DNA of 24,450 bases from Chloroflexota bacterium (GTDB taxonomy: Bacteria > Chloroflexota > Dehalococcoidia > UBA2979). The translations under genes were made by a program, and so were the position numbers. The stretch spans positions 1-24,450 of the forward strand of contig JAQCIU010000044.1 in assembly GCA_027593235.1 (NCBI GenBank). The letters are read 5' to 3'. Shown here one piece after another: positions 1,772-15,777 of this stretch (position 1 is the stretch's first letter; each line of letters starts with the position of its first letter). The notes below the pieces were generated by a model. It worked only from the letters and a program-made list of their open reading frames with translations, ran no database searches and was not told the origin of the DNA.

Positions 1772-2502
1772 CCGAGGATCATCCGGCACTGCGCGATGCC
1801 CAGCACGTGCTCAGCGAAGCGTTGCTCCGGAGCCTCGAGCGCTCCACCGCCGCCGAGACCCTGATCACCGTCGCCACCGATATCTGGGACGAGATCGGGC
1901 GCGTCGCCGCGCTGCATCGCTGCGAGACGATCCTGATTGGCCTTCCGGAATTGGGTACCCCCGGGACGCTCGAGCAGCTCGAAGCCCTGATCCGCGACGT
2001 CGATGCGGACGTGATGGTGGTCCGCGCACCGTGGCGCTGGCGCCTGGCCGACGTTGAGCGCGTCCTGATCCCCGTCGCCGCTGGCCGCGGCCACAACCGG
2101 CTTCGTGCGCGCCTGCTCGCCAGCTTGAGTCGCGACAGCGACCGCTCACTCACCTACCTGCGCACCGTGCCCGCCCACAGCTCGCCCGACGCTCGACGCC
2201 GTGCCGAACGCACGCTCCTCGCAGTCGCGCGCGACGAGGCCGTCGGTACCTACGAGGCGCAGATCGAGGCGACCACTGAGCCCGCCGAGCCGATCATCCG
2301 CCTGGCAGCCGACGCCGACCTGCTGATCATGGGCCTGCAACCGTGGCGTCAGCAGCAGCACGCCGTCTCCATGGCATTCGAGGTCGCCCGAGCAACCGAC
2401 ACCCCGCTCGTCCTGATCTCGCAACGACGCTCACGCGCCAGCGCGCTGCGCTCGCGGCTCACGCCCCAGCGCGGCGACGAGCCCCCGCCGCCCGCGAATT
2501 GA
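1756..2502 (+). pseudogene. Tandem universal-stress-protein (USP)-like domains, frameshifted continuation of the permease
   Basis: The frame of ORF 1807..2502 is open upstream through ~1756 (AQGQLTEDHPALRDAQHVLSEA). USP-like motifs: CETILIG, DADVMVVR, ERVLIPVAAG, ADADLLIMG, TPLVLI. No convincing RBS before GTG 1807. Confidence 0.75.
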
Positions 2503-2550
2503 CTAAAGTCGGCGCTATTCAGGGCCGTTCATCCCTCACACCCGCGGCCG

Positions 2551-3303
2551 GTGAGCGACGACGATGCAGCGATGACGAACATCGACGCCGCCCCCGTGAT
2601 CGCCCAAGCATCGGAGCTCGCTATCTCCCGCTACGGGCGCTATCGCCGCCCACTCGACGCGGAGCCCGCGTCGGCGGAGGACCCGACTGCCAGCGGAAGG
2701 TCCCTGCAGGCGGAGGCGACGCGGCAGAGCCTGATGCGCGCTGCCCGCGCGCTGTTCGGAGCAGCCGGGTATGAAGCGACCGCGCTCGGCGACATCGTCA
2801 AACGGGCAGGCGTTACGCGCGGCGCGCTCTACTACCACTACGAAGGCAAGTGCGCCGTCTTCGAGGCCGTTTACCGAGCGGTTCAAGCCGAACTCAGGGA
2901 CCGGGCCATCGAGGCATATGGCCGCGACCGCTTGACGACTCCGGCATCAGCGCGCGTCCGTGCCGGCCTCGACGAGTACCTCGAGCAGTCGGCGCAACCC
3001 GAGGTGCAACAGATCATCTTCGGAGATGGCGTCGCCGTCCTCGGCTGGGAGCATTGCCGCGCGATCGAGCGCGAGTACAGCCTTGGTGCGCTGCTGACCG
3101 GCCTCGACCTCATCCGCAACGAAGGGACGATCGCCGCCCCGGCGGACCTCGAGGTCAGCGCCTACATCCTCGCCGCGGCCCTCAGCGAGGCCTCGTATCT
3201 GATTGCTCACGCCGACGACCGCGAAGAGAAGCGCGCAGCGGTTGCCGCCGTAATCGAGAACATGCTCGACGGCCTGCTGAGTTTGTCGCGCATGCCGGCG
3301 TAG
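2551..3303 (+). CDS. TetR/AcrR-family transcriptional regulator
   Basis: HTH signature AARALFGAAGYEATALGDIVKRAGVTRGALYYHYEGK; start uncertain (GTG 2551 or ATG 2572). Confidence 0.92.
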   Translation: MSDDDAAMTNIDAAPVIAQASELAISRYGRYRRPLDAEPASAEDPTASGRSLQAEATRQSLMRAARALFGAAGYEATALGDIVKRAGVTRGALYYHYEGKCAVFEAVYRAVQAELRDRAIEAYGRDRLTTPASARVRAGLDEYLEQSAQPEVQQIIFGDGVAVLGWEHCRAIEREYSLGALLTGLDLIRNEGTIAAPADLEVSAYILAAALSEASYLIAHADDREEKRAAVAAVIENMLDGLLSLSRMPA

Positions 3304-3366: not shown

Positions 3367-4341
3367 CTACGCGCCGCGGAGCCGAGGATCGAGGACGTCG
3401 CGGATCGCATCACCGAGGAAGCTGAACGCGATCACCACGGTCGAGATCGCGCCACCCGCAAACACCGTCAGCCACTGGTGGAACTCCAGGCTCGCCCGAC
3501 CCTCGTTCACCATCTTCCCCCACGACACCACCCCACGAGGGCCGACCCCGAGGAACGAGATGGTCGCCTCGAAGAGGATGTACGCGCCGATGCCGATCGA
3601 GAATGCGATCAGGACGGTCGACGCGATGTTCGGGAGGATGTGTTGCAGCAGGATGCGAGGGTTCGAGGCGCCAAGTGATCGCGCGGCCTCGACGTAGTCC
3701 GTGCTCTGCACCACGAGCGTCGACGATCGAACAATCCGCGTCGCGGTCGGTACCCCGACCACGCCCATCGCGAACACGGCGTTCCGCACGGACGGCTCGG
3801 CAACCTGCACCAGCAGCAGGAGCAGTACGAGGCCCGGGAACGCCTGTAGCGCGTCGATCAAGCGCTGCGTCACCAGGTCGAATGGCCCGCGGTAGAAGCC
3901 GGAGGTCACCCCGACCAGCACGCCCAATCCCACCGCGATCGCCGACGCTCCGAGGCCCACGATCAACGAGAGGCGAGCGCCCCAGACGATACGAGCGTAG
4001 ATATCGTGCCCGGCCCGCGTCGTCCCGAACCAGTGCTCCTTGCTTGGCGCCTCGAGTCCGTTCACCACCAGCCGTGACCCGCGGTCTGAATCGGCTGCCA
4101 GTTCAGCGAGCGATGGGTTCGATTTTTAGTTCAGATTCGGTTCGGCGAACACATAGTTCGGGTCGTAGCGCGAGACCAACGGAGCGAAGACGGCGATGAG
4201 GATCACGGCGATCACGACGCCAAGCGCGACGGCCCCGGCCGGCTTCTTGCGGGCGAAGCGGATCAGCCAATCCAGCGGCGGTAGTTGGATCCCTCGACGC
4301 CGATCAATGGCAAGACCGGAAGAAACCGCGTCCTGCGTCAA
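3367..4341 (-). pseudogene. Peptide/nickel ABC transporter permease (DppC/OppC-like) interrupted by an in-frame TAA at 4126-4128
   Basis: ORFs 4126..4341 and 3367..4068 are in the same frame: ...FAEPNLN*KSNPSLAELAADSDRGSRLVVNGLEAPSKEHWFGT. OppC-type N-terminus (RFARKKPAG + TM), EAA loop DYVEAARSLGAS, C-terminal LGDAIRDVLDPR. Confidence 0.88.
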
Positions 4342-4505: not shown

Positions 4506-4580
4506 TGGTGAGCCCGGAGAGGATCGAACTCTCGACCGATGGATTAAAAGTCCACTGCTCTGCCACTGAGCTACGGGCCC
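4506..4580 (-). tRNA. tRNA-Lys (anticodon TTT)
   Basis: Reverse complement GGGCCCGTAGCTCAGTGGCAGAGCAGTGGACTTTTAATCCATCGGTCGAGAGTTCGATCCTCTCCGGGCTCACCA has an acceptor stem, D arm, CTTTTAA anticodon loop, GTTCGA T loop and encoded CCA. Confidence 0.97.
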
Positions 4581-4672: not shown

Positions 4673-6538
4673 CTACAGATCGTGCGCGCGCATCCAGTGC
4701 TCCAGCATTGCCCAGCGCCAGAACGCGTTCCACTCCAGCAGCCGCGGCCGGCCCTGGGCCTGGTATCGCACGTAGGCGCGCCGCAGCTCCCCCGCGTCCA
4801 CGTACCCGCGCTCCGCCGTCCGAGGTCGCTCCAGCAACTCTCGGATCGCCGATCGCGATCCCGTCAGCACCCCGTGCTCGTAGAAGCTTCCCGGGTGCGC
4901 CTTGATGCCGCTGTCGCGTGCGTAGTCCGGCACCGTCCCGCGCATCGCCTCACGCAGCACCCACTTATCCGTGCCCTCCACCGTGATCCGCGCTGGTGGG
5001 ATTGAAAGCACCCAGTCCGCCAGCCTCCGGTCCGACCACGGATCGGCGTAGCGGATCCCCGCCTGTGCGTTCAGCCGTTCCAGGTACTCCGCGCTCGCCG
5101 CGTGACCCGGCCACGCGATCGCCTCGTGCCGCCGTCGGCGCGCCTCCCCCGCCAACCTCGAGGCCGGGACCGCCTCCACCGCTCCGTGCTCCAGGCCATG
5201 CGCGACCAACGCGTCGGCGCGCACCCACGGCGGCAGTGCCACCCCGCCCGGTACCGCCCGCCGGAACCAGTCACGCGCTGCCGTCGACCGATAGCGCGCC
5301 CAGAGCGCGGCCGGCGCCCGCCGCAGCAGGTCGCGCTTCAGCACCGCGCGGGTCGTCGTCCGTTCACGGCTCGCTTGCCGGCGTGCTTGCGCCAGCACGT
5401 TCATCGGCCCTCCGCGCCGCAGGACCCCCAGGTAATCGAAGATCCCCTCCGCGAACAGCGGATCGCTGCGGTGGCCTGTCATCATTAGCTGAACGCCGTC
5501 GCTCGCCGCCTGCTCCGCCGCGTGCCGCATCAGCAGGTGACTGTGGAGTAATTCCGGTCCATCCAGATCCGGCGCGCGATTCGCGAAATCCGCCAGCGGG
5601 AACGCGTCCGCGCCTGGGATCACGGTGTTTGGCTGACCCAGCAGCGTCGTCAGCGGATCGCTGATCGAACGTTCGTCCGCCTCTGGAAACCCGTCGTATC
5701 CGAAGCTGTACGTGTGCAGCAGCGGTAGCCCGGGATCCTCCGCGCGCAACGCCGCCGATACCGCCGCGATCGAAACCGAATCAAGCCCGCCGCTCAGCAG
5801 CAGCCCCGGCTGTGCGGTCGCCCGCACCCGCGCGCCCACCACCGTTCGTACCAGCTCCTGAAGTTCCAGCGCGTACTCCGCGCCTGACGCGCGATCAGTT
5901 GCGTGCCGCGGCGGTTGCCAGAATCGCCGCGACCGAACGCCAGCTCGATCGGCTCGCAGCACGTGGCCTGGGCGCAGCCGCCGCACGGCCTCGAAGGGCG
6001 TCCAGCCTGGCGAGGATGTCCGTCCCGCGAGCGACGCGATCAGCGATCGGTCGTCCACCTGGCGTGGCACCAGCCCCGTCGCCAGCAACTGACCGATCTC
6101 GCTGCCCGCCAACAACCGATCGCCGATCGCTGCGTAGAAGAAGGGGCGCGTGCCGAAGATGTCCCGCGCGGCGAACATCGATCCCCGCGGTGCGTCCCAG
6201 ATCGCGAACGCGAAGTCACCCAGCAACTCCGCGGCGCAGTCGTCGCCCCAGCGGTCGAAGGCGGCCAGGATCAGCTCCGCGTCGGAATCGGTCGTCGTCC
6301 GATCGAGCCGTCGCGCCAACGCCGCTCGCTCGTCCAGACGGCTGTCGGCGACGATCAGCCGGCCGCTCTCATCCGTCGCGACGCTGGCGCCGTCACCCAG
6401 CGCCGTCGCTGCCGCCCGCGCGACGCTTGCGCTTGTGCGGCCCGGCCCACGGTGCGCTGCGCCGTCCGCCAGCGGCGTCACCGCCGATCGAGGATCCCAC
6501 GCGGACGTCAGGCTGACCGCGAATCCGAAACCAGCCAT
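4673..6538 (-). CDS. Asparagine synthetase-like protein, probable lasso-type isopeptide-bond-forming cyclase
   Basis: GATase-II-like N domain (DSDAELILAAFDRWG, LLGDFAFAIWD, ARDIFGTRPFFY), PP-loop LLSGGLDS, DKWVLREAM. N-terminus is MAG rather than MCG, so the glutaminase Cys is absent. Confidence 0.85.
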   Translation of the reverse strand: MAGFGFAVSLTSAWDPRSAVTPLADGAAHRGPGRTSASVARAAATALGDGASVATDESGRLIVADSRLDERAALARRLDRTTTDSDAELILAAFDRWGDDCAAELLGDFAFAIWDAPRGSMFAARDIFGTRPFFYAAIGDRLLAGSEIGQLLATGLVPRQVDDRSLIASLAGRTSSPGWTPFEAVRRLRPGHVLRADRAGVRSRRFWQPPRHATDRASGAEYALELQELVRTVVGARVRATAQPGLLLSGGLDSVSIAAVSAALRAEDPGLPLLHTYSFGYDGFPEADERSISDPLTTLLGQPNTVIPGADAFPLADFANRAPDLDGPELLHSHLLMRHAAEQAASDGVQLMMTGHRSDPLFAEGIFDYLGVLRRGGPMNVLAQARRQASRERTTTRAVLKRDLLRRAPAALWARYRSTAARDWFRRAVPGGVALPPWVRADALVAHGLEHGAVEAVPASRLAGEARRRRHEAIAWPGHAASAEYLERLNAQAGIRYADPWSDRRLADWVLSIPPARITVEGTDKWVLREAMRGTVPDYARDSGIKAHPGSFYEHGVLTGSRSAIRELLERPRTAERGYVDAGELRRAYVRYQAQGRPRLLEWNAFWRWAMLEHWMRAHDL

Positions 6539-6587
6539 CTGCCGACTCCCTGCCTGCGCCTGTGATCCGTCCGAGGTGGAACCTGAC

Positions 6588-6617
6588 GTGACAATTTATG
6601 GAAACGATTGCTAGTGT
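6588..6617 (+). promoter_or_regulatory. Possible sigma70-type promoter for the small peptide ORF
   Basis: GTGACA-18 nt-TAGTGT with TG one base upstream of the -10 (extended -10), in a locally AT-rich patch. Confidence 0.35.
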
Positions 6618-6679
6618 GAAGGCCCGCCGGCGCGGCTACTGGTCGCGCTGCCAAGATCGACCAGAAGTTAGGACCCAAC

Positions 6680-6781
6680 ATGCAGTACCGTCAGCCACGC
6701 ATCGAGCGACGCGAGTCGCTGAACGCCCTGATGACCAAGCTGTCGCACGCTGACCTCGCGGATGGCGCCCAGGCCAGCTAA
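6680..6781 (+). CDS. 33-aa putative RiPP (lasso-like) precursor MQYRQPRIERRESLNALMTKLSHADLADGAQAS
   Basis: Not in the ORF track (too short). AGGA RBS upstream, GC3-rich codons, YxxPxI leader motif, Thr19 followed by a segment with Asp at putative core position 8. Divergent from the Asn-synthetase-like gene and followed by a terminator. Confidence 0.7.
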   Translation: MQYRQPRIERRESLNALMTKLSHADLADGAQAS

Positions 6782-6821
6782 GACATCGATCGGGGGGAGC
6801 GCTCCGCGCTCACACCTGAAC

Positions 6822-6855
6822 AAGAGGCGGCCGAAAGGTCGCCTCTTTGTTGTTT
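6822..6855 (+). terminator. Intrinsic terminator
   Basis: AAGAGGCGGCC-GAAA-GGTCGCCTCTT hairpin followed by TGTTGTTT. Confidence 0.8.
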
Positions 6856-6984
6856 GCGTAGGAATGTCCGCTGGTCACTGGACCGCCGCGACGTCCGCGG
6901 TAACCGGTACATCGAGGACTCAGGAACACCGAGGTTTGAGTGCCGCCCGCCTGCGCGACGGGCGCGTCGTCGGATCCTGCGGGG

Positions 6985-7173
6985 TTACGCCTTCCGCGGT
7001 GCGCCTTGGCCGCGCTGACGGAGCCAGCGGCCCTGCGGTCCGGACTGGTGATCGACAAACTCCTTGGTCGCGCCGCAGGTCTTGCAGACCCCCGTCGTTC
7101 CACCCGCGCGGGGTGAAGGCAACATCCAGTGGTGAACGCACTCTTCCGTCTGGGACTGTTGTTGAGTTGTCAT
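6985..7173 (-). CDS. Small Cys/His (putative zinc-binding) hypothetical protein, 62 aa
   Basis: MTTQQQSQTEECVHHWMLPSPRAGGTTGVCKTCGATKEF... with a CxHHW-x13-CxxC pattern and basic tail; GGAG RBS before ATG 7173. Confidence 0.7.
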   Translation of the reverse strand: MTTQQQSQTEECVHHWMLPSPRAGGTTGVCKTCGATKEFVDHQSGPQGRWLRQRGQGAPRKA

Positions 7174-7531
7174 CGTCTGCTCCGTCCGTTCGCCCTCAGG
7201 CATGCGTTCGTTGCCTCGGAGTGCGCGACATCGTGTCGCGCTGGGGAGCGCTCCCGAGGCGTGAGCTGAACGGTCGGCAAATCCCCGCCGCCGTCTCCTG
7301 ATCGCGTACCTGTGCGGGACCCGATCAGTGCCGTGACGCGTGCGAGGCGATCACGGTTCTCCATCTGCACTGCCCGGGCAAGCCCCGGGCCGCGAGTGGC
7401 GTCACCATACCGCGTTCGAATCAGCCTCGCTCGAATGTCGTGTCAAGCCGTCCCCATCCGCGATTGACAACACAGGCCCGCTCGCCCCTAGATGCACGCC
7501 TCGTTCGCGAACAGCCCGCTCGGAGATCTCG

Positions 7532-9970
7532 ATGCCCGAACCAAGCGCCGCGCTCGCCGCACTGCGCGTCATCGATTGCTCGGAAGGCGTCGCCGGACCA
7601 TTCGCCGCGCGGCTCCTCGGTGACCTCGGCGCGGACGTCGTCAAGGTCGAAACTCCGCGCGGCGATCGGGCTCGTCGCCTCTACCCGGAGCAAGATCCCG
7701 CCCGGCTTGGCTCACTCTTCGATTACCTCAACTGGAACAAGCGCGGCGTCACCATTGATCTCGCGGGCGCGCCCGGCCGCGACGCGCTCTCGACCCTCCT
7801 CGCCTCGGCGGATGTGCTGATCGACAGCGACCCCCCGGCCAACGAGGGTGTACTGAGCGCAGTGCACATCGCGGAGCAGTATCCCGCGCTCGTCCACGTC
7901 TCCGTAACCCCCTTTGGGCAGGACGGCCCGCGTGCCGGCTGGCGCACCGCCCCGATCGTCGATTGGGCGATGAGCGGCTACATGTACTTCGCCGGCGATC
8001 CGGCGCGCCCACCGCTGATGCTTCCCGGCTACCAGGCCGAGTTCCACGCCGGGCAGGCTGCCGCGATCGCTGCGCTTGCCGCCCTGCACGAACGCGACCA
8101 ATCGCGCCGCGGACAGCACGCCGATATCTCCGTTCAGGAAGCGGCGCTCACCACCCACGCCTGGAACGCCGTCGCCTGGACACATGCCGGGCAGGTCCTG
8201 CGCCGGCTCGGCTCTGACCTCTTCCGTTGCAGCGACGGCTGGGTGCACTGGATGCGCCGCGCCAACGAGCCGAACGTCCTCGTCCTCATCGACCGACCCG
8301 ATCTGCTCGACGACCCGCACTACCTCGAACTCGAGACCTGGCGCGATCCCGACTCCGATCTGTGGCACATGGTCCGTGCCTGGTGCGCCGAGCAGCCGAT
8401 GCTCGAGGTCTATCGGCGCGCCCAGGAACTCCGGATCGCCGTCGCGCCGGTGAATACCGTTGCCGATCTGCTCGCCTCGGAGCAGCTCGCCGTCCGCCAT
8501 GGCTTCGTCGCCCCGCACCCCGACGCGCCAACGCTCCGCTACCCCGCGCCACCACTTGGGCTCACCACTAGCCCGGCTACCGTCCGCCGCCCGGCGCCCC
8601 ACCTCGGCGAACACGACGGCACGATCGAGGCCCGCCCCGCACCTGCACCCGCACCCGCACCCGCACCCGCACCCGCACCCGCGGCCGCTTCGGCAGCGCG
8701 CCGCGCTGTCCCCGGCTCGGGCGCCCTCGCCGGTCTGCGCGTCATCGAGGTCACCGCCAACTGGGCCGGGCCGCTCGTCGGCCGCCACATGGCCGATCTG
8801 GGTGCCGAGGTGATCAAGGTCGAACACGCCCAGCGGCCCGCCACCCGGGCTCTCTGGTACCCCGGCAACGAACCCGGCAAGCGCCCGTACAACCGCGCCG
8901 GGTACTTCAACAACCTCAACCGCGGCAAGCTCGATGTCTCGCTCGATCTCGCTGCCCCGGAGGGCCGCGACCTCTTCCTTCGCCTGGTCGAACTCGCCGA
9001 CGTCGTCGTCGAGAACAACAGTGCCCGTGTCATGCCCAACCTCGGTCTCGGCTGGGACACGCTCTCCGCCCGCAACCCGCGGCTCGTCATGGCCTCGATC
9101 TCCGGCTTCGGCGCCTCCGGCCCCGAACGCGACTACGTCGCCTACGGCGCGAACATCGAGGCTGCTAGTGGCCTCGCAGCGGTCACCGGCTATCACGACG
9201 ACGACACGCCCTATCGCGCCAACACCTTCTACGCCGATCCGATCAGCGGGAACTACGCGACGATCGCTGTGCTCGCCGCCCTCCGCGCGCGGGACGCGAG
9301 CGGCCACGGCCAGTGGCTCGATCTCTCGCTCAACGAATGCGCCGCCAGCTTCTTTGGCGACGCCTTCATCGAGCACCAGCGCACCGGCGCGCTCCCTCCG
9401 CGACGTGGCAACCGCCACCCCGTCTACGCCCCACAGGGCGCCTACCAGACCGTCGGCGACGACGACTGGCTCGTCCTCACGGTGCGCGATGACGAGGAGT
9501 GGCACGCCCTCTGCACCGCCCTCGATCGCCCAGACTGGCTCGCGGATGCCACGCTTGCCACGCTCGAGGGTCGGCGCGCTCGCCACGACGAACTCGACGC
9601 GGCGATCAGCGGGTGGGCGGCCAACCTCGATCATCGCGAAGCCGCGGCCCTGCTCCAGGAGGCGGGCGTTCCCGCCGCTCCGGTGCTCGCGAACTACGAG
9701 TTGGTGACCGACGCGCACCTCCACCGCCGCGCCTTCTACATCCCGATCGAGCACCCCGAAGCCGGTGTGCTCCCCTTCGCCGGCATGCCCTGGAAGCTCA
9801 GCCGCACGCCCGGCCACGTCGCTCGTGCGGCCCCTCGCTTCGCCGAACACAACGCCTACGTCCTCGGCGATCTACTCGGCCTCGACGCCGATGCGATAGC
9901 CGCCCTCGAGGCCTCCGGCGTCGCCGATCGAAACCCGATCGTCGGGCCGATCATCCGCGTCGTTCCGTAA
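7532..9970 (+). CDS. Family III (CaiB/BaiF) CoA-transferase with two fused domains
   Basis: Two copies of the family signature: ALRVID..AGPFAARLLGDLGADVVKVE..LNWNKR and GLRVIE..AGP..ADLGAEVIKVE..LNRGK, each ending AP.(L/F)(G/A)EH. GGAG RBS before ATG 7532; the ORF-track start at 7340 looks overextended. Confidence 0.93.
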   Translation: MPEPSAALAALRVIDCSEGVAGPFAARLLGDLGADVVKVETPRGDRARRLYPEQDPARLGSLFDYLNWNKRGVTIDLAGAPGRDALSTLLASADVLIDSDPPANEGVLSAVHIAEQYPALVHVSVTPFGQDGPRAGWRTAPIVDWAMSGYMYFAGDPARPPLMLPGYQAEFHAGQAAAIAALAALHERDQSRRGQHADISVQEAALTTHAWNAVAWTHAGQVLRRLGSDLFRCSDGWVHWMRRANEPNVLVLIDRPDLLDDPHYLELETWRDPDSDLWHMVRAWCAEQPMLEVYRRAQELRIAVAPVNTVADLLASEQLAVRHGFVAPHPDAPTLRYPAPPLGLTTSPATVRRPAPHLGEHDGTIEARPAPAPAPAPAPAPAPAAASAARRAVPGSGALAGLRVIEVTANWAGPLVGRHMADLGAEVIKVEHAQRPATRALWYPGNEPGKRPYNRAGYFNNLNRGKLDVSLDLAAPEGRDLFLRLVELADVVVENNSARVMPNLGLGWDTLSARNPRLVMASISGFGASGPERDYVAYGANIEAASGLAAVTGYHDDDTPYRANTFYADPISGNYATIAVLAALRARDASGHGQWLDLSLNECAASFFGDAFIEHQRTGALPPRRGNRHPVYAPQGAYQTVGDDDWLVLTVRDDEEWHALCTALDRPDWLADATLATLEGRRARHDELDAAISGWAANLDHREAAALLQEAGVPAAPVLANYELVTDAHLHRRAFYIPIEHPEAGVLPFAGMPWKLSRTPGHVARAAPRFAEHNAYVLGDLLGLDADAIAALEASGVADRNPIVGPIIRVVP
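8636..8683 (+). repeat. Hexamer microsatellite (GCACCC)n encoding a Pro-Ala linker
   Basis: GCACCT followed by six perfect GCACCC units (8645-8680) between the two CoA-transferase domains. Confidence 0.95.
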
Positions 9971-10071
9971 ACCGGCTGTCACCTCCGGCCGGGCTCGCGA
10001 AACGCAGCGCCGGCCGTGCCGTGTGTAGTTGAGGTGCATCGAGAAAGGGCGCACAAGCACAACAGAAGTGA

Positions 10072-10100
10072 TTTACACCCGTGAATCAAGCACCTATATT
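10072..10100 (+). promoter_or_regulatory. Sigma70-type promoter of the ABC operon
   Basis: TTTACA-17 nt-TATATT in an AT-rich intergenic patch, ~70 nt upstream of the SBP start. Confidence 0.6.
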
Positions 10101-10173
10101 CTAGACCAAGGAACACATCGCATGCGATGTGCCAATGCTGGTGGCACGCGGCCACCCTGGAGGGAACCCGCTC

Positions 10174-11901
10174 ATGGACGGAAACTACTGGACTAGGCAA
10201 CGGCTCTCGCGGCGCTCGATGCTCCGCGGTGCTGCCGTCGGGACCGCCGGTGTCGCCGGCGCCGTGCTCATCGGTTGTGGCGACGGCGATGGCGATGGCG
10301 ACGCGACCGCAGCGGCGACCTCTGCTGGCGGTGGCAACGCGACTGCTGCGGCCTCCGGGACCGCGGCCGTTGCCGAGGGCGGACCGACGCGTGGTGGCAA
10401 GCTCACCCTGCACATGGGTACCGAGCCCCGCAGCCTCGACCCCCACTTCGAGACCTTCACCCCGGCGCCCGCCAACGCCACCTCGAACAACCTCGTCCGC
10501 TTCACGTCGGACCTCACCTCGATCGTCCCGGACGCTGCGGAACTACCGGAGCAGCCGGACGAGCTGACCTACATCTTCAAGCTCCAGCCCGGCATCCACA
10601 TGCACGATGTCGCGCCGCTCAATGGACGCCCGCTGACGTCCGAGGACGTGAAGTACACCTTCGAGCGCCAGTCCAACCAGGCCGGCGATGAGGCCGGTAC
10701 CTATCAGCACGCCTACTACTTCAAGGACAAGCTCACCAGCATCGAGACGCCGGACGATCAGACCGTCGTCTTCAAGACTGCTGCGCCCTATGCCGCCTTC
10801 ATGAACTACATGGCCAGCCCGTGGAGTCCATTGATCGCCCGCGAGTACGTTGAGGCCAACGGTGACCTCACCGAGTACATCGGTTCCAGCGGGCCATACA
10901 TCTTGAAGGAATGGCAAAAAGAAGTTCGGATGACGTTCGAACGGAACCCGAACTACTGGAAGAACGCCGATCTGCCGTGGCTCGACGAGCTCGAGTTCCT
11001 GATCTCACCGGACCCCGACACCGCCGCGACGCAGTACATCGATGGTGCGTTCGGGGCGTACGTCGCCGGGCAGAGCCAGCTCAGCCGGGTCCAGGGCGCG
11101 AAGGGCGACGCCGCGCGGTACAACGCTGTTCCCAGTCAGTTCTGGCGTCAGTTCCGGATGTCCCCGACGGACGCGGAGTTCAGCTACCTCGACTACGCCG
11201 GAACCGAGAACGAGACCGGTGCCATCTTCGATGACATCCGTGTCCGCCAGGCGATCTGTCAGGCGATCGACAAGCAGCAGGTCCTGGACCTCGTCTACTC
11301 CGGCGACGGTCAGGTCGCCTACGGCCCGATCCTGCCGCAGTTCACCAACTGGGCGCTCAAGGAAGAGCTGGTCCCGTACGACCTCGCTGAGTCGCAGAAG
11401 CTCATGGCCGCCGCCGGCGTCAGTGAGATCCGCGGCCCGATGATGTGGGCGTCTTCCAGCCCGCAGTCCGACCAGATCGGCGAGATCCTCAAGGAGCAGC
11501 TCGCGAAGATCGGTGTCGTCACGGACCTGGAGCCGATGGAAACCGCTGCGTACTACAACGTTACGTACAAGTACCGTTACACCATGTCGCACCACGTTCC
11601 GCTGAACAGCCCGGAGCCGGATGAGAACCTCTCTTCCTACTTCGGTGAGAAGTCGACGTACTTCAAGCACTTCAACCCGGACATCTTCGCGCTCGTCAAG
11701 AAGCAGTCCGAGACCGTTGACTTAGAAGAGCGTCAGGCCATCGTGAAGGAAGCGCAGGAGAAGATCGTTCTCGATTACCCCATCCGCTTCATGTTCACGA
11801 CGAACACCCATCAGTTCATCAACAACGAACTGAAGGACTACGCGATCTCGCTGGACCGCTACGATAACTACGGTGTCGAGACGGCCTGGCTCGACGCCTA
11901 G
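10174..11901 (+). CDS. ABC transporter substrate-binding protein, family 5 (Tat lipoprotein)
   Basis: GGAGGG RBS, twin-arginine LSRRSMLRG, lipobox LIGC, Ala/Thr-rich linker, RGGKL..EPRSLDPH, PLTSEDVKYTFER, GPYILKEW..FERNPNYW, FDDIRVRQAI..AID. Confidence 0.95.
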   Translation: MDGNYWTRQRLSRRSMLRGAAVGTAGVAGAVLIGCGDGDGDGDATAAATSAGGGNATAAASGTAAVAEGGPTRGGKLTLHMGTEPRSLDPHFETFTPAPANATSNNLVRFTSDLTSIVPDAAELPEQPDELTYIFKLQPGIHMHDVAPLNGRPLTSEDVKYTFERQSNQAGDEAGTYQHAYYFKDKLTSIETPDDQTVVFKTAAPYAAFMNYMASPWSPLIAREYVEANGDLTEYIGSSGPYILKEWQKEVRMTFERNPNYWKNADLPWLDELEFLISPDPDTAATQYIDGAFGAYVAGQSQLSRVQGAKGDAARYNAVPSQFWRQFRMSPTDAEFSYLDYAGTENETGAIFDDIRVRQAICQAIDKQQVLDLVYSGDGQVAYGPILPQFTNWALKEELVPYDLAESQKLMAAAGVSEIRGPMMWASSSPQSDQIGEILKEQLAKIGVVTDLEPMETAAYYNVTYKYRYTMSHHVPLNSPEPDENLSSYFGEKSTYFKHFNPDIFALVKKQSETVDLEERQAIVKEAQEKIVLDYPIRFMFTTNTHQFINNELKDYAISLDRYDNYGVETAWLDA

Positions 11902-14052: not shown

Positions 14053-15687
14053 TTACGCGGCGAGTCGGGTCGCCCCGGCGCTCGCCTTGACTGCACCGAC
14101 CCAGACGAGGAAGTCGCCCAGTTCGGTGGAGAGGGTCTCCAGTCCTTCGGACTGGTTCGAGATCTCGCTCATCTGAGCGGTGACCTGCTGCGCGCTCGCG
14201 GCAATCTGCTCGCTTGCGGCGGCGTTCTGCTCGGCAACGGCGCTCACCGCTGCCAGGCTCTCGGTGACCTGCTCCGCCTGTTCACGCATCTCCACCGCAA
14301 GCTGGGTGTTCTGCTGCGCGAGCTGACCGACGTTCTCGATGATCCCGCTCATCTCATCCGCCGAACGGTCGGCGGAGTCGGCGGTGCGGGCGATCGTCTC
14401 GACGCTGGTGGTCAGGGCTTCCGCGGCACCAACGATGCGCTCGAGCGCTTCGCCGGCCTCACGGGCCTTCTCCATGCCGGTGCCGGCGTCGTCCTGCGCG
14501 GAGCGGATCGACTCCACGCTGCCGTCCATGCCCGCCTGGACCTTTTCGATCAGGGAGGCGATGTCCTTCGCGGCGTTGCTGGCACGCTCGGCCAGCGTAC
14601 GGACCTCGTCAGCCACGACCGCGAATCCACGGCCGTGCTCACCAGCGCGGGCCGCCTCGATCGCGGCGTTCAGCGCCAGCAGGTTGGTCTGGTCCGCGAT
14701 GTCGGAAATGGTCTGGGTGATGTTGCCGATCTCCTTGCCGGAGGCGGACAGCTCTTCGATCCGCTCGGACGTCGAGGTCATCGCCTCGTTGATCGTCTCC
14801 ATCGCGGCGATCGTCTCGGTGACGGAGCGGCTGCCGTCGCGCGCCGCCTGCATGCCCTCGGCGCTGCGAGCGCTGGCCTCCTGCGAGTTCGACGTCACCG
14901 ATGCCAGTGACTCCTTCACGCTGGCTGCCGACGCGCTGGCGCGCTGCACGCCATCCGCCTGCTCGCCCGCGCCGCTCGCCACGTTCTCGACCGACTGGGC
15001 GAGTTCCGCGACGCGGTCGTTCGAGTCATGGAGCTTCTGCGTCTGCTCGGTCGCGCCGGTCGCGATCTGCTGCACGCCCTGGGCGATCTCGCGGCTGGCC
15101 TCATCGACCTGACCGGAGCTGGTGCTGAGCCCGGCGGCGGCCGGAGCCAGCTTCCCATCCAGGTCCACCATGCGGTCGAACAGACCGGCGAGGTAGGCCT
15201 CCACGGCCAGCGTGGCGTCCAGCATGAACGCCTTCTCGAAGGAGAGGATCGTGTCCAGCAGCACCTGGCCATTCAGGTGCTTGGCAAGACGCGGGTAGAC
15301 GAGGCGGGAGTAGAGCGCGTAGTTGCCGACGTTCCAGCGCGGCTTGACGTCCAGCTCCGCGTGGCGGTAACCGACCTTCAGGACCGCGTCGAAGTGGGCG
15401 GCGTCCCAGCGCGCGGTCAGGAGCTGACGGAAGTAGCCGGCCTGCGCGCCTTCCAGCGCGCTCCGGGTGCTGCTCGCCAGCGAAATCTTCTCGCCGAGGA
15501 TCGGGTACTCGAACGAGAAGTCGTAGAACTCGCGGACGATCGCTTCAGTCTCGGGCTCAAGGAACTTCGCGGCGTTCTGAACCCGCTGGCGGTCGGAATC
15601 GTCGATCGCGAGCCAGCGGAGCCGCAGGGCCAGGTCCTGCGAATCGATGCCGAGCTTCTGGGTGAAACTAACTGACTGACTGACCAT
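14053..15687 (-). CDS. Globin-coupled sensor / soluble methyl-accepting chemotaxis protein (HemAT-like)
   Basis: N-terminal sensor globin (IVREFY; [19 protein letters not shown] with the presumed proximal His), MCP hairpin tip [39 protein letters not shown], no TM segment; GGAGGA RBS before ATG 15687. Confidence 0.93.
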
Positions 15688-15777
15688 CGTTGAGTCCTCC
15701 GGACCGTGCTGAATGTCGGTGCGTGCCGTCAATGCTGACCTGGTACGTGGCGGCTGCTGGGACGCGCCGCCGAGCAC

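Follow-up and report, generated by a model that had tools for sequence, protein, structure and literature searches.

Lasso cyclases are thought to depend on a pair of leader-processing proteins, B1 and B2. Here we describe a small locus in which a gene for a cyclase-like enzyme of the Asn-synthetase fold stands head-to-head with a 33-codon open reading frame (ORF), the product of which resembles the precursors of a different class of RiPPs (peptides synthesized ribosomally and modified post-translationally). The locus lies in a 24,450-base contig (C57), analysed over its whole length and called the window below, from a genome bin of 3.39 Mb and 89.66% completeness (G000; Dehalococcoidia, Chloroflexota). 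The closest described system on the peptide side is the linear polyphosphorylated peptide (LPP) pathway of Bacillota, lppA-K-B-S-D-N (Popov et al., Nat Commun 2026, PMC13381572). In the parts of that article drawn on here, the core genes encode a signal-peptidase-like leader peptidase (LppS), a discrete RiPP recognition element (RRE; LppB), an HprK-like kinase (LppK), an NTP transferase (LppN) and an exporter. LppS is of archaeal type, with catalytic S29, H68 and D93. The precursors, of 35-200 aa, carry the motif YxxPxVLxHQxIxFETxxS, are cut after T-1 and are polyphosphorylated on core Ser3, while the products are said to be linear and the pathway restricted to Bacillota. About one third of the LPP peptidase genes lie near lasso genes (cyclase, B2), a pattern that the authors read as neighbouring lasso clusters (PMC13381572).

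On the enzyme side, the closest described systems are the lasso peptides, whose defining topology is a 7-9-residue ring with plug residues, and for which kinase, nucleotidyltransferase and sulfotransferase genes are known tailoring genes, according to the sections of PMC8498205 used here. Pseudomycoidin needed only its A and C genes in vivo, and its untailored product was not threaded; the same source, also used in part, mentions a B-less cyanobacterial lasso cluster (PMC6993621). We count this ring closure without B proteins as a precedent for what is proposed here.

Our reading, to which we assign a probability of about 0.5, is that a lasso-type cyclase would act on an LPP-type precursor and turn it into an 8-9-residue macrolactam that carries a tail of 5 residues. 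The window would then hold, at the same odds, the precursor and the ring-closing part of a RiPP system whose genes are dispersed and in which two known pathways are mixed. The features on which this reading is built are listed here by their window positions:

4673..6538, minus strand: gene of the Asn-synthetase-fold enzyme, 621 aa, from translation and Pfam; predicted lasso-type macrolactam synthetase (C protein)
6680..6781, plus strand: precursor peptide gene, 33 aa, from family alignment and profile search; intact in other runs
6670..6673, plus strand: Shine-Dalgarno-like AGGA, six bases 5' of the precursor ATG
6822..6847, plus strand: terminator-like hairpin with a T-rich tail, 3' of the precursor gene
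6593..6620, minus strand: sigma-70-like promoter match directed towards the enzyme gene (TTCACA, 16 nt, TAAATT), by consensus match only

The small ORF starts with ATG, 141 bases upstream of the start of the divergent enzyme gene, and encodes MQYRQPRIERRESLNALMTKLSHADLADGAQAS. Its leader spans about residues 1-19/20 (including Y3, P6, I8, R11, E12 and L17) and its core about residues 20/21-33 (including S22, D25, D28 and the C-terminal S33). We built a profile from four peptides, namely that of the window, one from G001 (same genus) and two from G016 (another genus of the taxonomic family), and searched it against 99 genomes of this family within the Dehalococcoidia. The 12 matches were confined to G000, G001, G003 and G016, with E-values of 4e-18 to 5e-19 for the best members, and a class-level sample of 401 genomes gave matches in G000 only. 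The family comprises 10 strong members and 3 weaker, Cys-bearing ones; further strong members were found at G016:C28 (four), G016:C3 (one) and G003:C125 (one), and the weaker two-Cys members at G003:C88, G000:C7 and G000:C20. Alignment of the strong members gave the leader consensus MxYxxPxΦExRExΦxGLL, in which M1, Y3, P6, R11 and L17 are invariant and E9, E12 and G16 are kept in at least 90%. The [Y/W]xxPxΦ motif, seen as Y3, P6 and I8 in the window, thus has its Tyr and Pro in all ten. Cores are short and variable, at 9-14 aa in precursors of 29-33 aa, and a Ser three residues past the hydrophobic-x-small junction can be read in all 10 strong members, in a single alignment column for 9 of them.

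In G001, the counterpart peptide MRYERPRMRRESIKGLLTKRSPSDQSDDAA is 50% identical to that of the window and sits in the equivalent position and orientation, between the enzyme gene and a small Cys/His gene, with its own hairpin 3'. G016 carries two precursor ORFs about 3 kb from its enzyme gene. Contigs from two public runs, X4 and X7, hold the window ORF intact, with 6758 G>A (A27T, in the core) as the single change; the flanks differ by four changes in the 203 bases downstream plus one in the enzyme gene (X4) and by two upstream (X7). Runs X3 and X4 hold the stretch on contigs of 134-150 kb, and all 24 public runs listed for it are DNA runs. An alignment of the intergenic DNA of the window, G001 and G003 was uninformative, and conservation is seen at the protein level only. 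It could be argued that a short ORF in a GC-rich genome full of spurious ORFs is a chance open frame in an intergenic region, and two syntenic relatives (G003 and locus L095) do indeed lack it. We regard this as highly improbable given the family-wide conservation and the strong profile, the ATG start in 12/12 family ORFs checked and the purine-rich Shine-Dalgarno-like stretch in 11 of these 12, the tandem copies, and the co-occurrence with the enzyme described below. That the 33-codon ORF is a real precursor gene for a small modified peptide is a prediction from sequence that we hold with much more confidence than the full chain of steps proposed here.

Most of what the initial annotation reported for this locus was borne out: the head-to-head layout, the MAG start and SGGLDS of the enzyme, the ribosome-binding site (AGGA at 6670-6673), the terminator, a conserved RiPP-type precursor with a YxxPxI leader, and a core that is unusually short, now seen family-wide. 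The hairpin at 6822-6847 has 11 pairs followed by TGTTGTTTGC and a fold z-score of -3.8 against shuffles. It may be shared with a convergent gene at 6985..7203 (minus strand), and a very similar hairpin lies 3' of the homologue of that gene in L095, where there is no precursor gene. A possible promoter that had been assigned to the small ORF was not recovered, as a consensus scan gave no promoter-like site for it and its sole match (6620->6593, minus strand) faces the enzyme gene. Thr at -2, previously cited as a lasso feature, is not a feature of the family. A Thr equivalent to T19 occurs in only 2/10 strong members, and T19 is at -2 only if the cut falls after K20.

The enzyme begins MAGFGF, with Ala in place of Cys2, and contains the PP-loop LLLSGGLDS. 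Pfam assigns it Asn_synthase and GATase_7/GATase_6 domains. It shares with AsnB (TIGR01536/PF00733) the two-domain fold and the SGGLDS loop, and differs from it in the Cys2-to-Ala replacement, in the lower score (171.4 bits for the asparagine synthase model TIGR01536, cut-off 267) and in its separation in the tree. The best-scoring curated NCBIfam model is NF033535, the cyanobacterial-type lasso cyclase, at 261.9 bits; as this is far below the cut-off of 525, the enzyme is not a member of that curated family. It also falls short of the other curated lasso-cyclase cut-off (NF033561, 57 bits against 300), while the G016 copy reaches 315 bits for NF033535. Identity to the window enzyme is 63% in G003, 59% in L095, 58% in G001 and 45% in G016. 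MAG is the start in each of six close homologues (55-63% identical), against MSG in more distant ones (32-36%); every close homologue that was aligned is intact and retains the PP-loop. The close homologues P0006, P0007 and P0008 are encoded on contigs of 125-302 kb.

In a quick maximum-likelihood tree of 25 rows, supported by the Shimodaira-Hasegawa-like approximate likelihood-ratio test (SH-aLRT) only, the window clade falls, with an SH-aLRT of 100, among cyclases from loci that have PqqD (B1) and Transglut_core3 (B2). The AsnB of this genome itself, encoded on C36 and starting MCG, is set apart from it (SH-aLRT 99). This agrees with the earlier placement of the enzyme with lasso cyclases rather than with ordinary AsnB, an assignment of which we are much more confident than of the full chain, although it too is a prediction. 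At E<=1e-131, homologues of the enzyme are limited to G000, G001, G003 and G016 among the 99 genomes of the family; the matches in two others are weak (near 1e-31). The enzyme and the peptide family therefore co-occur in 4/4 genomes with the enzyme and in 0/95 others; the four genomes represent two genera only and are not independent.

Searching the PDB with the enzyme sequence brought up no lasso cyclase; the only matches were AsnB-type enzymes, a hydroxyamidotransferase and CarA. The Asn-synthetase fold performs several amide-forming reactions, so other adenylation chemistry deserves mention: amidation or amine/acyl conjugation at an Asp or at the C-terminus, possibly with an acyltransferase and a ligase, and with no N-terminal ring. 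The solved relatives just named would fit this, as would the presence of an LPLAT-type acyltransferase in three relatives and of a FadD-like ligase beside the G016 enzyme gene (see below), and cores shorter than in any sister lasso locus examined. Yet the glutaminase Cys is missing, which leaves the enzyme with no ammonia source, and it nests inside the cyclases of B1/B2 clusters rather than on a separate branch. We therefore judge this explanation very unlikely. The 'lipolassos' of a preprint are reportedly GNAT-made and belong with a different enzyme family.

We searched four relatives (G001, G003, G016 and G046) for partner genes. Transglut_core3 (B2) was found in 0/4. PqqD was found in three (G001, G003 and G016, one strong gene each), and in a search of four genomes that included G000, a PF14907 nucleotidyltransferase gene follows PqqD in these same three. 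Their cassettes share three more components: an HprK-like protein of 365-374 aa (TIGR04352, 47-58 bits, below the cut-off), an LPLAT-type acyltransferase, and a 154-aa ORF with a GxSMG motif and about 50 homologues, mostly unnamed. The 154-aa product appears to be a protease. Ser28, His67 and Asp88 are invariant in 26 aligned sequences, and Pfam Peptidase_S24 scores 25.2 and 23.0 bits against a cut-off of 23.3. A structural model with a predicted local distance difference test (pLDDT) score of 93 has as its best PDB match the catalytic subunit of the human signal-peptidase complex, with SipA and LexA C-domains among the other top matches. In G016, the cassette is contiguous with two precursor genes, the FadD-like ligase and the cyclase gene. 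We noticed no ABC (ATP-binding cassette) exporter, such as the MsbA-like one of the LPP core set, beside the cassettes in loci L014, L200 and L201, where no dedicated search for one was made. A link between the G003 cassette and the cyclase locus was considered and dropped: it relied on CoA-transferases that are only 32% identical, lends no support, and is probably a coincidence. The double-domain CoA-transferase of that cassette lies at L201:7630-10233 (plus strand), with counterparts by the cyclase locus in the window, G003 and L095.

The cassettes of G001, G003 and G016 match the LPP system in kind, with a discrete RRE, a kinase resembling HprK, PF14907 and a signal-peptidase-like protease whose Ser28 and His67 compare with S29 and H68 of LppS. 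The precursors resemble each other as well: YxxPxΦ, a hydrophobic-x-Thr/small junction, Ser at core position 3 and a hypervariable C-terminus. Judged by eye against the printed consensus, L17-M18-T19 followed by K20-L21-S22 in the window fits the cleavage and phospho-Ser motif, and the G001 peptide has the Tyr-to-Thr and Tyr-to-Ser spacing of that consensus. The differences are equally clear. The organisms belong to the Dehalococcoidia (Chloroflexota) rather than to Bacillota, the cassette adds an LPLAT acyltransferase, and the precursors are strictly accompanied by a lasso-type cyclase, whose gene adjoins theirs in the window and G001 and shares their cluster in G016. The cassette was seen in the relatives and was not found in the window's own assembly. 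In the LPP article text available to us (PMC13381572), 'Chloroflex' and 'acyltransferase' occur 0 times each. Our literature searches turned up no account in which a cyclase goes together with LPP-type precursors and a protease of signal-peptidase type in the absence of B2, and none of cores as short as 9-14 aa; Supplementary Data 2 of that article, a list of domains in the surroundings of SpI genes, may hold cases of either.

From these observations we propose a sequence of chemical steps, including a cut site and the enzymes that would act in G000. A PqqD-type RRE would bind the YxxPxI leader. Phosphorylation by an HprK-like kinase would take place at Ser22, which is core residue 3, and perhaps at the C-terminal Ser33 too. 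Cleavage of the leader would follow L17-M18-T19; a junction at T19/K20 is likelier than one at K20/L21 because the conserved Ser position is that of the LPP motif. In the relatives, the cutter would be the Ser/His signal-peptidase-like protease; in G000, that role could fall to the same kind of protease, from a copy missing in the assembly, or to B1 and B2 from a separate cluster on contig C26. Next, the side chain of Asp28, which is core position 9 (or 8 with a cut after K20), would be adenylated by the Cys-less Asn-synthetase homologue and joined to the new N-terminal amine, giving an 8-9-residue macrolactam with the tail GAQAS. A classical plugged lasso is not expected because a product of 13-14 residues would be too short and too small-sided. 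The peptide would instead be branched and cyclic, at most held by a phosphate or sugar on its serines. Put briefly, the locus probably makes a phosphorylated ring-and-tail peptide of very small size rather than a classical lasso, and ring closure on the window peptide by this cyclase is a proposal.

For comparison with the paeninodin and pseudomycoidin type of lasso cluster, we inspected twelve loci of enzyme homologues with 24-35% identity. Transglut_core3 was present in five (L019, L034, L114, L100 and L023) and PqqD in seven (L019, L034, L114, L100, L044, L127 and L084), while four loci had neither B gene (L096, L047, L050 and L148). HPr-kinase-like genes occur in L019, L034 and L114, and PF14907 in L019, L114 and L100. 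A classical precursor, YxxPxΦxxxG...T with a 19-53-residue core, was seen in 7/12; the core ends in Ser in L034, L114 and L047, and the leader ends in LTK in L044 and L100. The likeness to our system lies in the Cys-less Asn-synthetase-type cyclase, the YxxP-type leader, the HprK-like kinase and PF14907 tailoring genes and the Ser at the end of the window core, and the sister loci L019, L034 and L114 have exactly the paeninodin/pseudomycoidin architecture. The differences concern the missing B2, which was not found in three of the four genomes (G001, G003 and G016), and the cores, which are 9-14 aa against 19-53 aa in the sister loci and roughly 2.6 kDa for pseudomycoidin. In addition, the leaders of the peptide family do not keep Thr at -2 or Gly at Pro+6, and the tail is too short and small for steric plugging. 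Threading is argued against by this five-residue tail, GAQAS, which has no bulky residue and no Cys. As an aside, L100:6188-7414, L127:2213-3460 and L084:3896-5062 encode a protein of about 390-415 aa with a C-terminal PqqD domain and no Pfam match elsewhere. This may be a fused RRE-enzyme, and a discrete PqqD is sometimes also present in loci of this kind.

The initial annotation found no PqqD or transglutaminase-like peptidase in the window and suggested partners encoded in trans. A scan of 30 long ORFs agreed that the window has neither gene. The single PqqD gene and the single Transglut_core3 gene of G000 are intact and side by side on C26, where they belong to a separate, canonical lasso cluster:

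L007 (G000:C26:31000-44756), about 5827..10363, minus strand: canonical lasso cluster, holding the only RRE and B2 of the genome
L007:10223..10363, minus strand: lasso precursor of the C26 cluster, 46 aa, MYERPTVTRLGLLADLTSAKSGYGNDGNEKAVGMANDFDILGKSDD, leader beginning MYERPTV

This cluster also encodes a PRMT/PrmA-like methyltransferase, an HprK-like kinase (the only one in G000), its own 553-aa cyclase and a major facilitator superfamily (MFS) transporter. It offers the material for an ordinary short lasso, in which B1 and B2 of C26 would cut the window peptide after K20 and the window enzyme would close L21-D28, leaving GAQAS threaded or free. Such a route would draw on the intact, adjacent B genes with a YxxP-type precursor beside them, on the lasso type of the enzyme, on the Thr-Lys before the putative core in the window and G001 peptides (compare the LTK endings in L044 and L100), on the terminal Ser shared with the kinase-bearing sister loci L034, L114 and L047, and on the kinase of C26. 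We nevertheless consider it unlikely. G001, G003 and G016 have the enzyme and peptides with no B2 match (0/4 genomes including G046), so that dependence on B2 cannot hold for the whole peptide family. A Thr at the -2 position is rare among the strong members, the conserved Ser would be left unexplained, a five-residue tail with no bulky residue cannot plug, and the C26 cluster has a cyclase of its own.

Several observations weigh against the ring-closed LPP-type product, and they are the reason why the full chain is placed at only about 0.5. In G000, tblastn did not find the RRE, nucleotidyltransferase, kinase, protease or acyltransferase of the cassette, and PF14907 was not found there either; this absence is not proof, because the assembly is 89.66% complete. 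In G003 and L095, the enzyme and the gene neighbourhood are kept with no precursor gene alongside. The one strong precursor of G003 has no acidic residue and therefore cannot be ring-closed. Asp or Glu falls at core positions 7-9 in 7/10 strong members, and since 16% of shuffled-core trials reach this figure, the enrichment of ring-forming acids is not significant. In favour of closure, each of the four precursors encoded close to a cyclase gene has an Asp or Glu as core residue 8 or 9. The enzyme gene of G001 (L013, G001:C8) contains two frame changes, at about 9520 and 11025, which are probably long-read indel errors rather than signs of a pseudogene because they fall in G/C homopolymer runs of an 8-contig assembly. 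Published LPP precursors are 35-200 aa long and their products stay linear, against 29-33 aa here. The kinase and the protease match curated models weakly, homology to LppS, LppK and LppB is argued from family models and fold rather than by direct comparison, and the hybrid reading as a whole is built on comparative genomics.

Many of these same observations would suit a linear, LPP-like phosphopeptide, with the cyclase being a relict of a decayed lasso cluster or acting on other precursors, such as the two YxxP peptides of G000 on C7 and C20, whose 16-19-residue cores have two Cys and an Asp at 7 or 8. The acid-free strong precursor of G003, the acids not enriched at ring positions and the enzymes kept with no adjacent precursor (G003 and L095) all go in this direction. 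LPPs as published are linear, and their clusters are often merely beside lasso clusters (PMC13381572, as far as used here). This alternative has to contend with the divergent, adjacent layout that the window shares with G001, their peptides being 50% identical, and with the G016 enzyme gene, which shares one cluster with two precursors and no other precursor type seen there. It must also explain why the enzyme is restricted to genomes with the peptide family, and why every aligned close homologue is an intact protein that retains the PP-loop. On balance, we find a purely linear product improbable. The initial annotation had asked whether cyclase homologues have conserved adjacent peptides: a peptide gene is present for G001 (adjacent) and G016 (about 3 kb away), and absent beside the enzyme in G003 and L095.

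Ring closure of an LPP-type precursor would matter for several reasons. LPPs were defined as lacking a cyclase and as confined to Bacillota. In the Chloroflexota studied here, judging by the gene content of the relatives, a lasso-type cyclase accompanies precursors and processing genes of LPP type, with no detectable B2. Should the proposal be correct, LPP and lasso pathways can be recombined, a second kind of leader peptidase is able to feed a lasso cyclase, and these would be the smallest head-to-side-chain macrolactams made by such an enzyme, offering minimal substrates for studying lariat folding or its failure. A more tentative idea, against which we would put the odds, is that of an undescribed RiPP subclass bridging LPPs and lasso peptides, in which a signal-peptidase-type protease replaces B2, the cyclase closes unthreadable cores of 9-14 residues, phosphate and possibly sugar and fatty acyl groups are added, and the precursor genes are scattered. 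Even with a cyclase that leaves the peptide untouched, the family would still be a new group of very short LPP-like precursors outside Bacillota.

Other members of the peptide family were observed away from the cyclase loci. The paralogous YxxP peptides that the initial annotation suggested looking for are present in G000 at C7:846-959 (minus strand) and C20:8986-9093 (plus strand, at the contig end), as weaker, two-Cys members. With cores of 16-19 residues and Asp at position 7-8, they resemble classical disulfide-bearing lasso cores more, and no biosynthetic gene lies alongside. At L187 (G016:C28), four family precursor genes, three of them in tandem, lie at 1890..2226 and 3653..3745 (plus strand), adjoining a Sulfotransfer_4 gene at 2354..3019 (minus strand) that hints at sulfation as a tailoring step. 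L189 (G003:C125) has a Ser-rich precursor at 8183..8281 (plus strand) directly followed by an HprK-like paralogue at 8385..9371 (plus strand), which is 32% identical to the copy in the cassette. On G000:C12, a stretch at about C12:10180-10791 (minus strand; L202) matches only residues 3-200 of the G016 FadD-like ligase, at 48% identity, and may be a shorter gene in its own right or an acyl-CoA ligase that is truncated or has diverged. We considered a broken cassette on this contig and dropped the idea, as no other cassette protein matched it.

The neighbours of the locus in the window are the following, to which the scan of long ORFs adds an oligopeptide ABC system:

4506-4580: tRNA-Lys
6985..7203, minus strand: small conserved gene with Cys and His residues
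7340..9970, plus strand: double-domain family-III CoA-transferase, about 870 aa

The small gene encodes 72 aa with a CxHH...CxxC pattern and belongs to no Pfam family. Homologues that are 82-88% identical stand next to the cyclase gene in G001, G003 and L095; none was found in the G016 locus. Farther along the window, and unrelated to the locus, a gene at 14053..15777 (minus strand) encodes a protoglobin fused to a methyl-accepting chemotaxis signalling domain, resembling the haem-based sensor HemAT.

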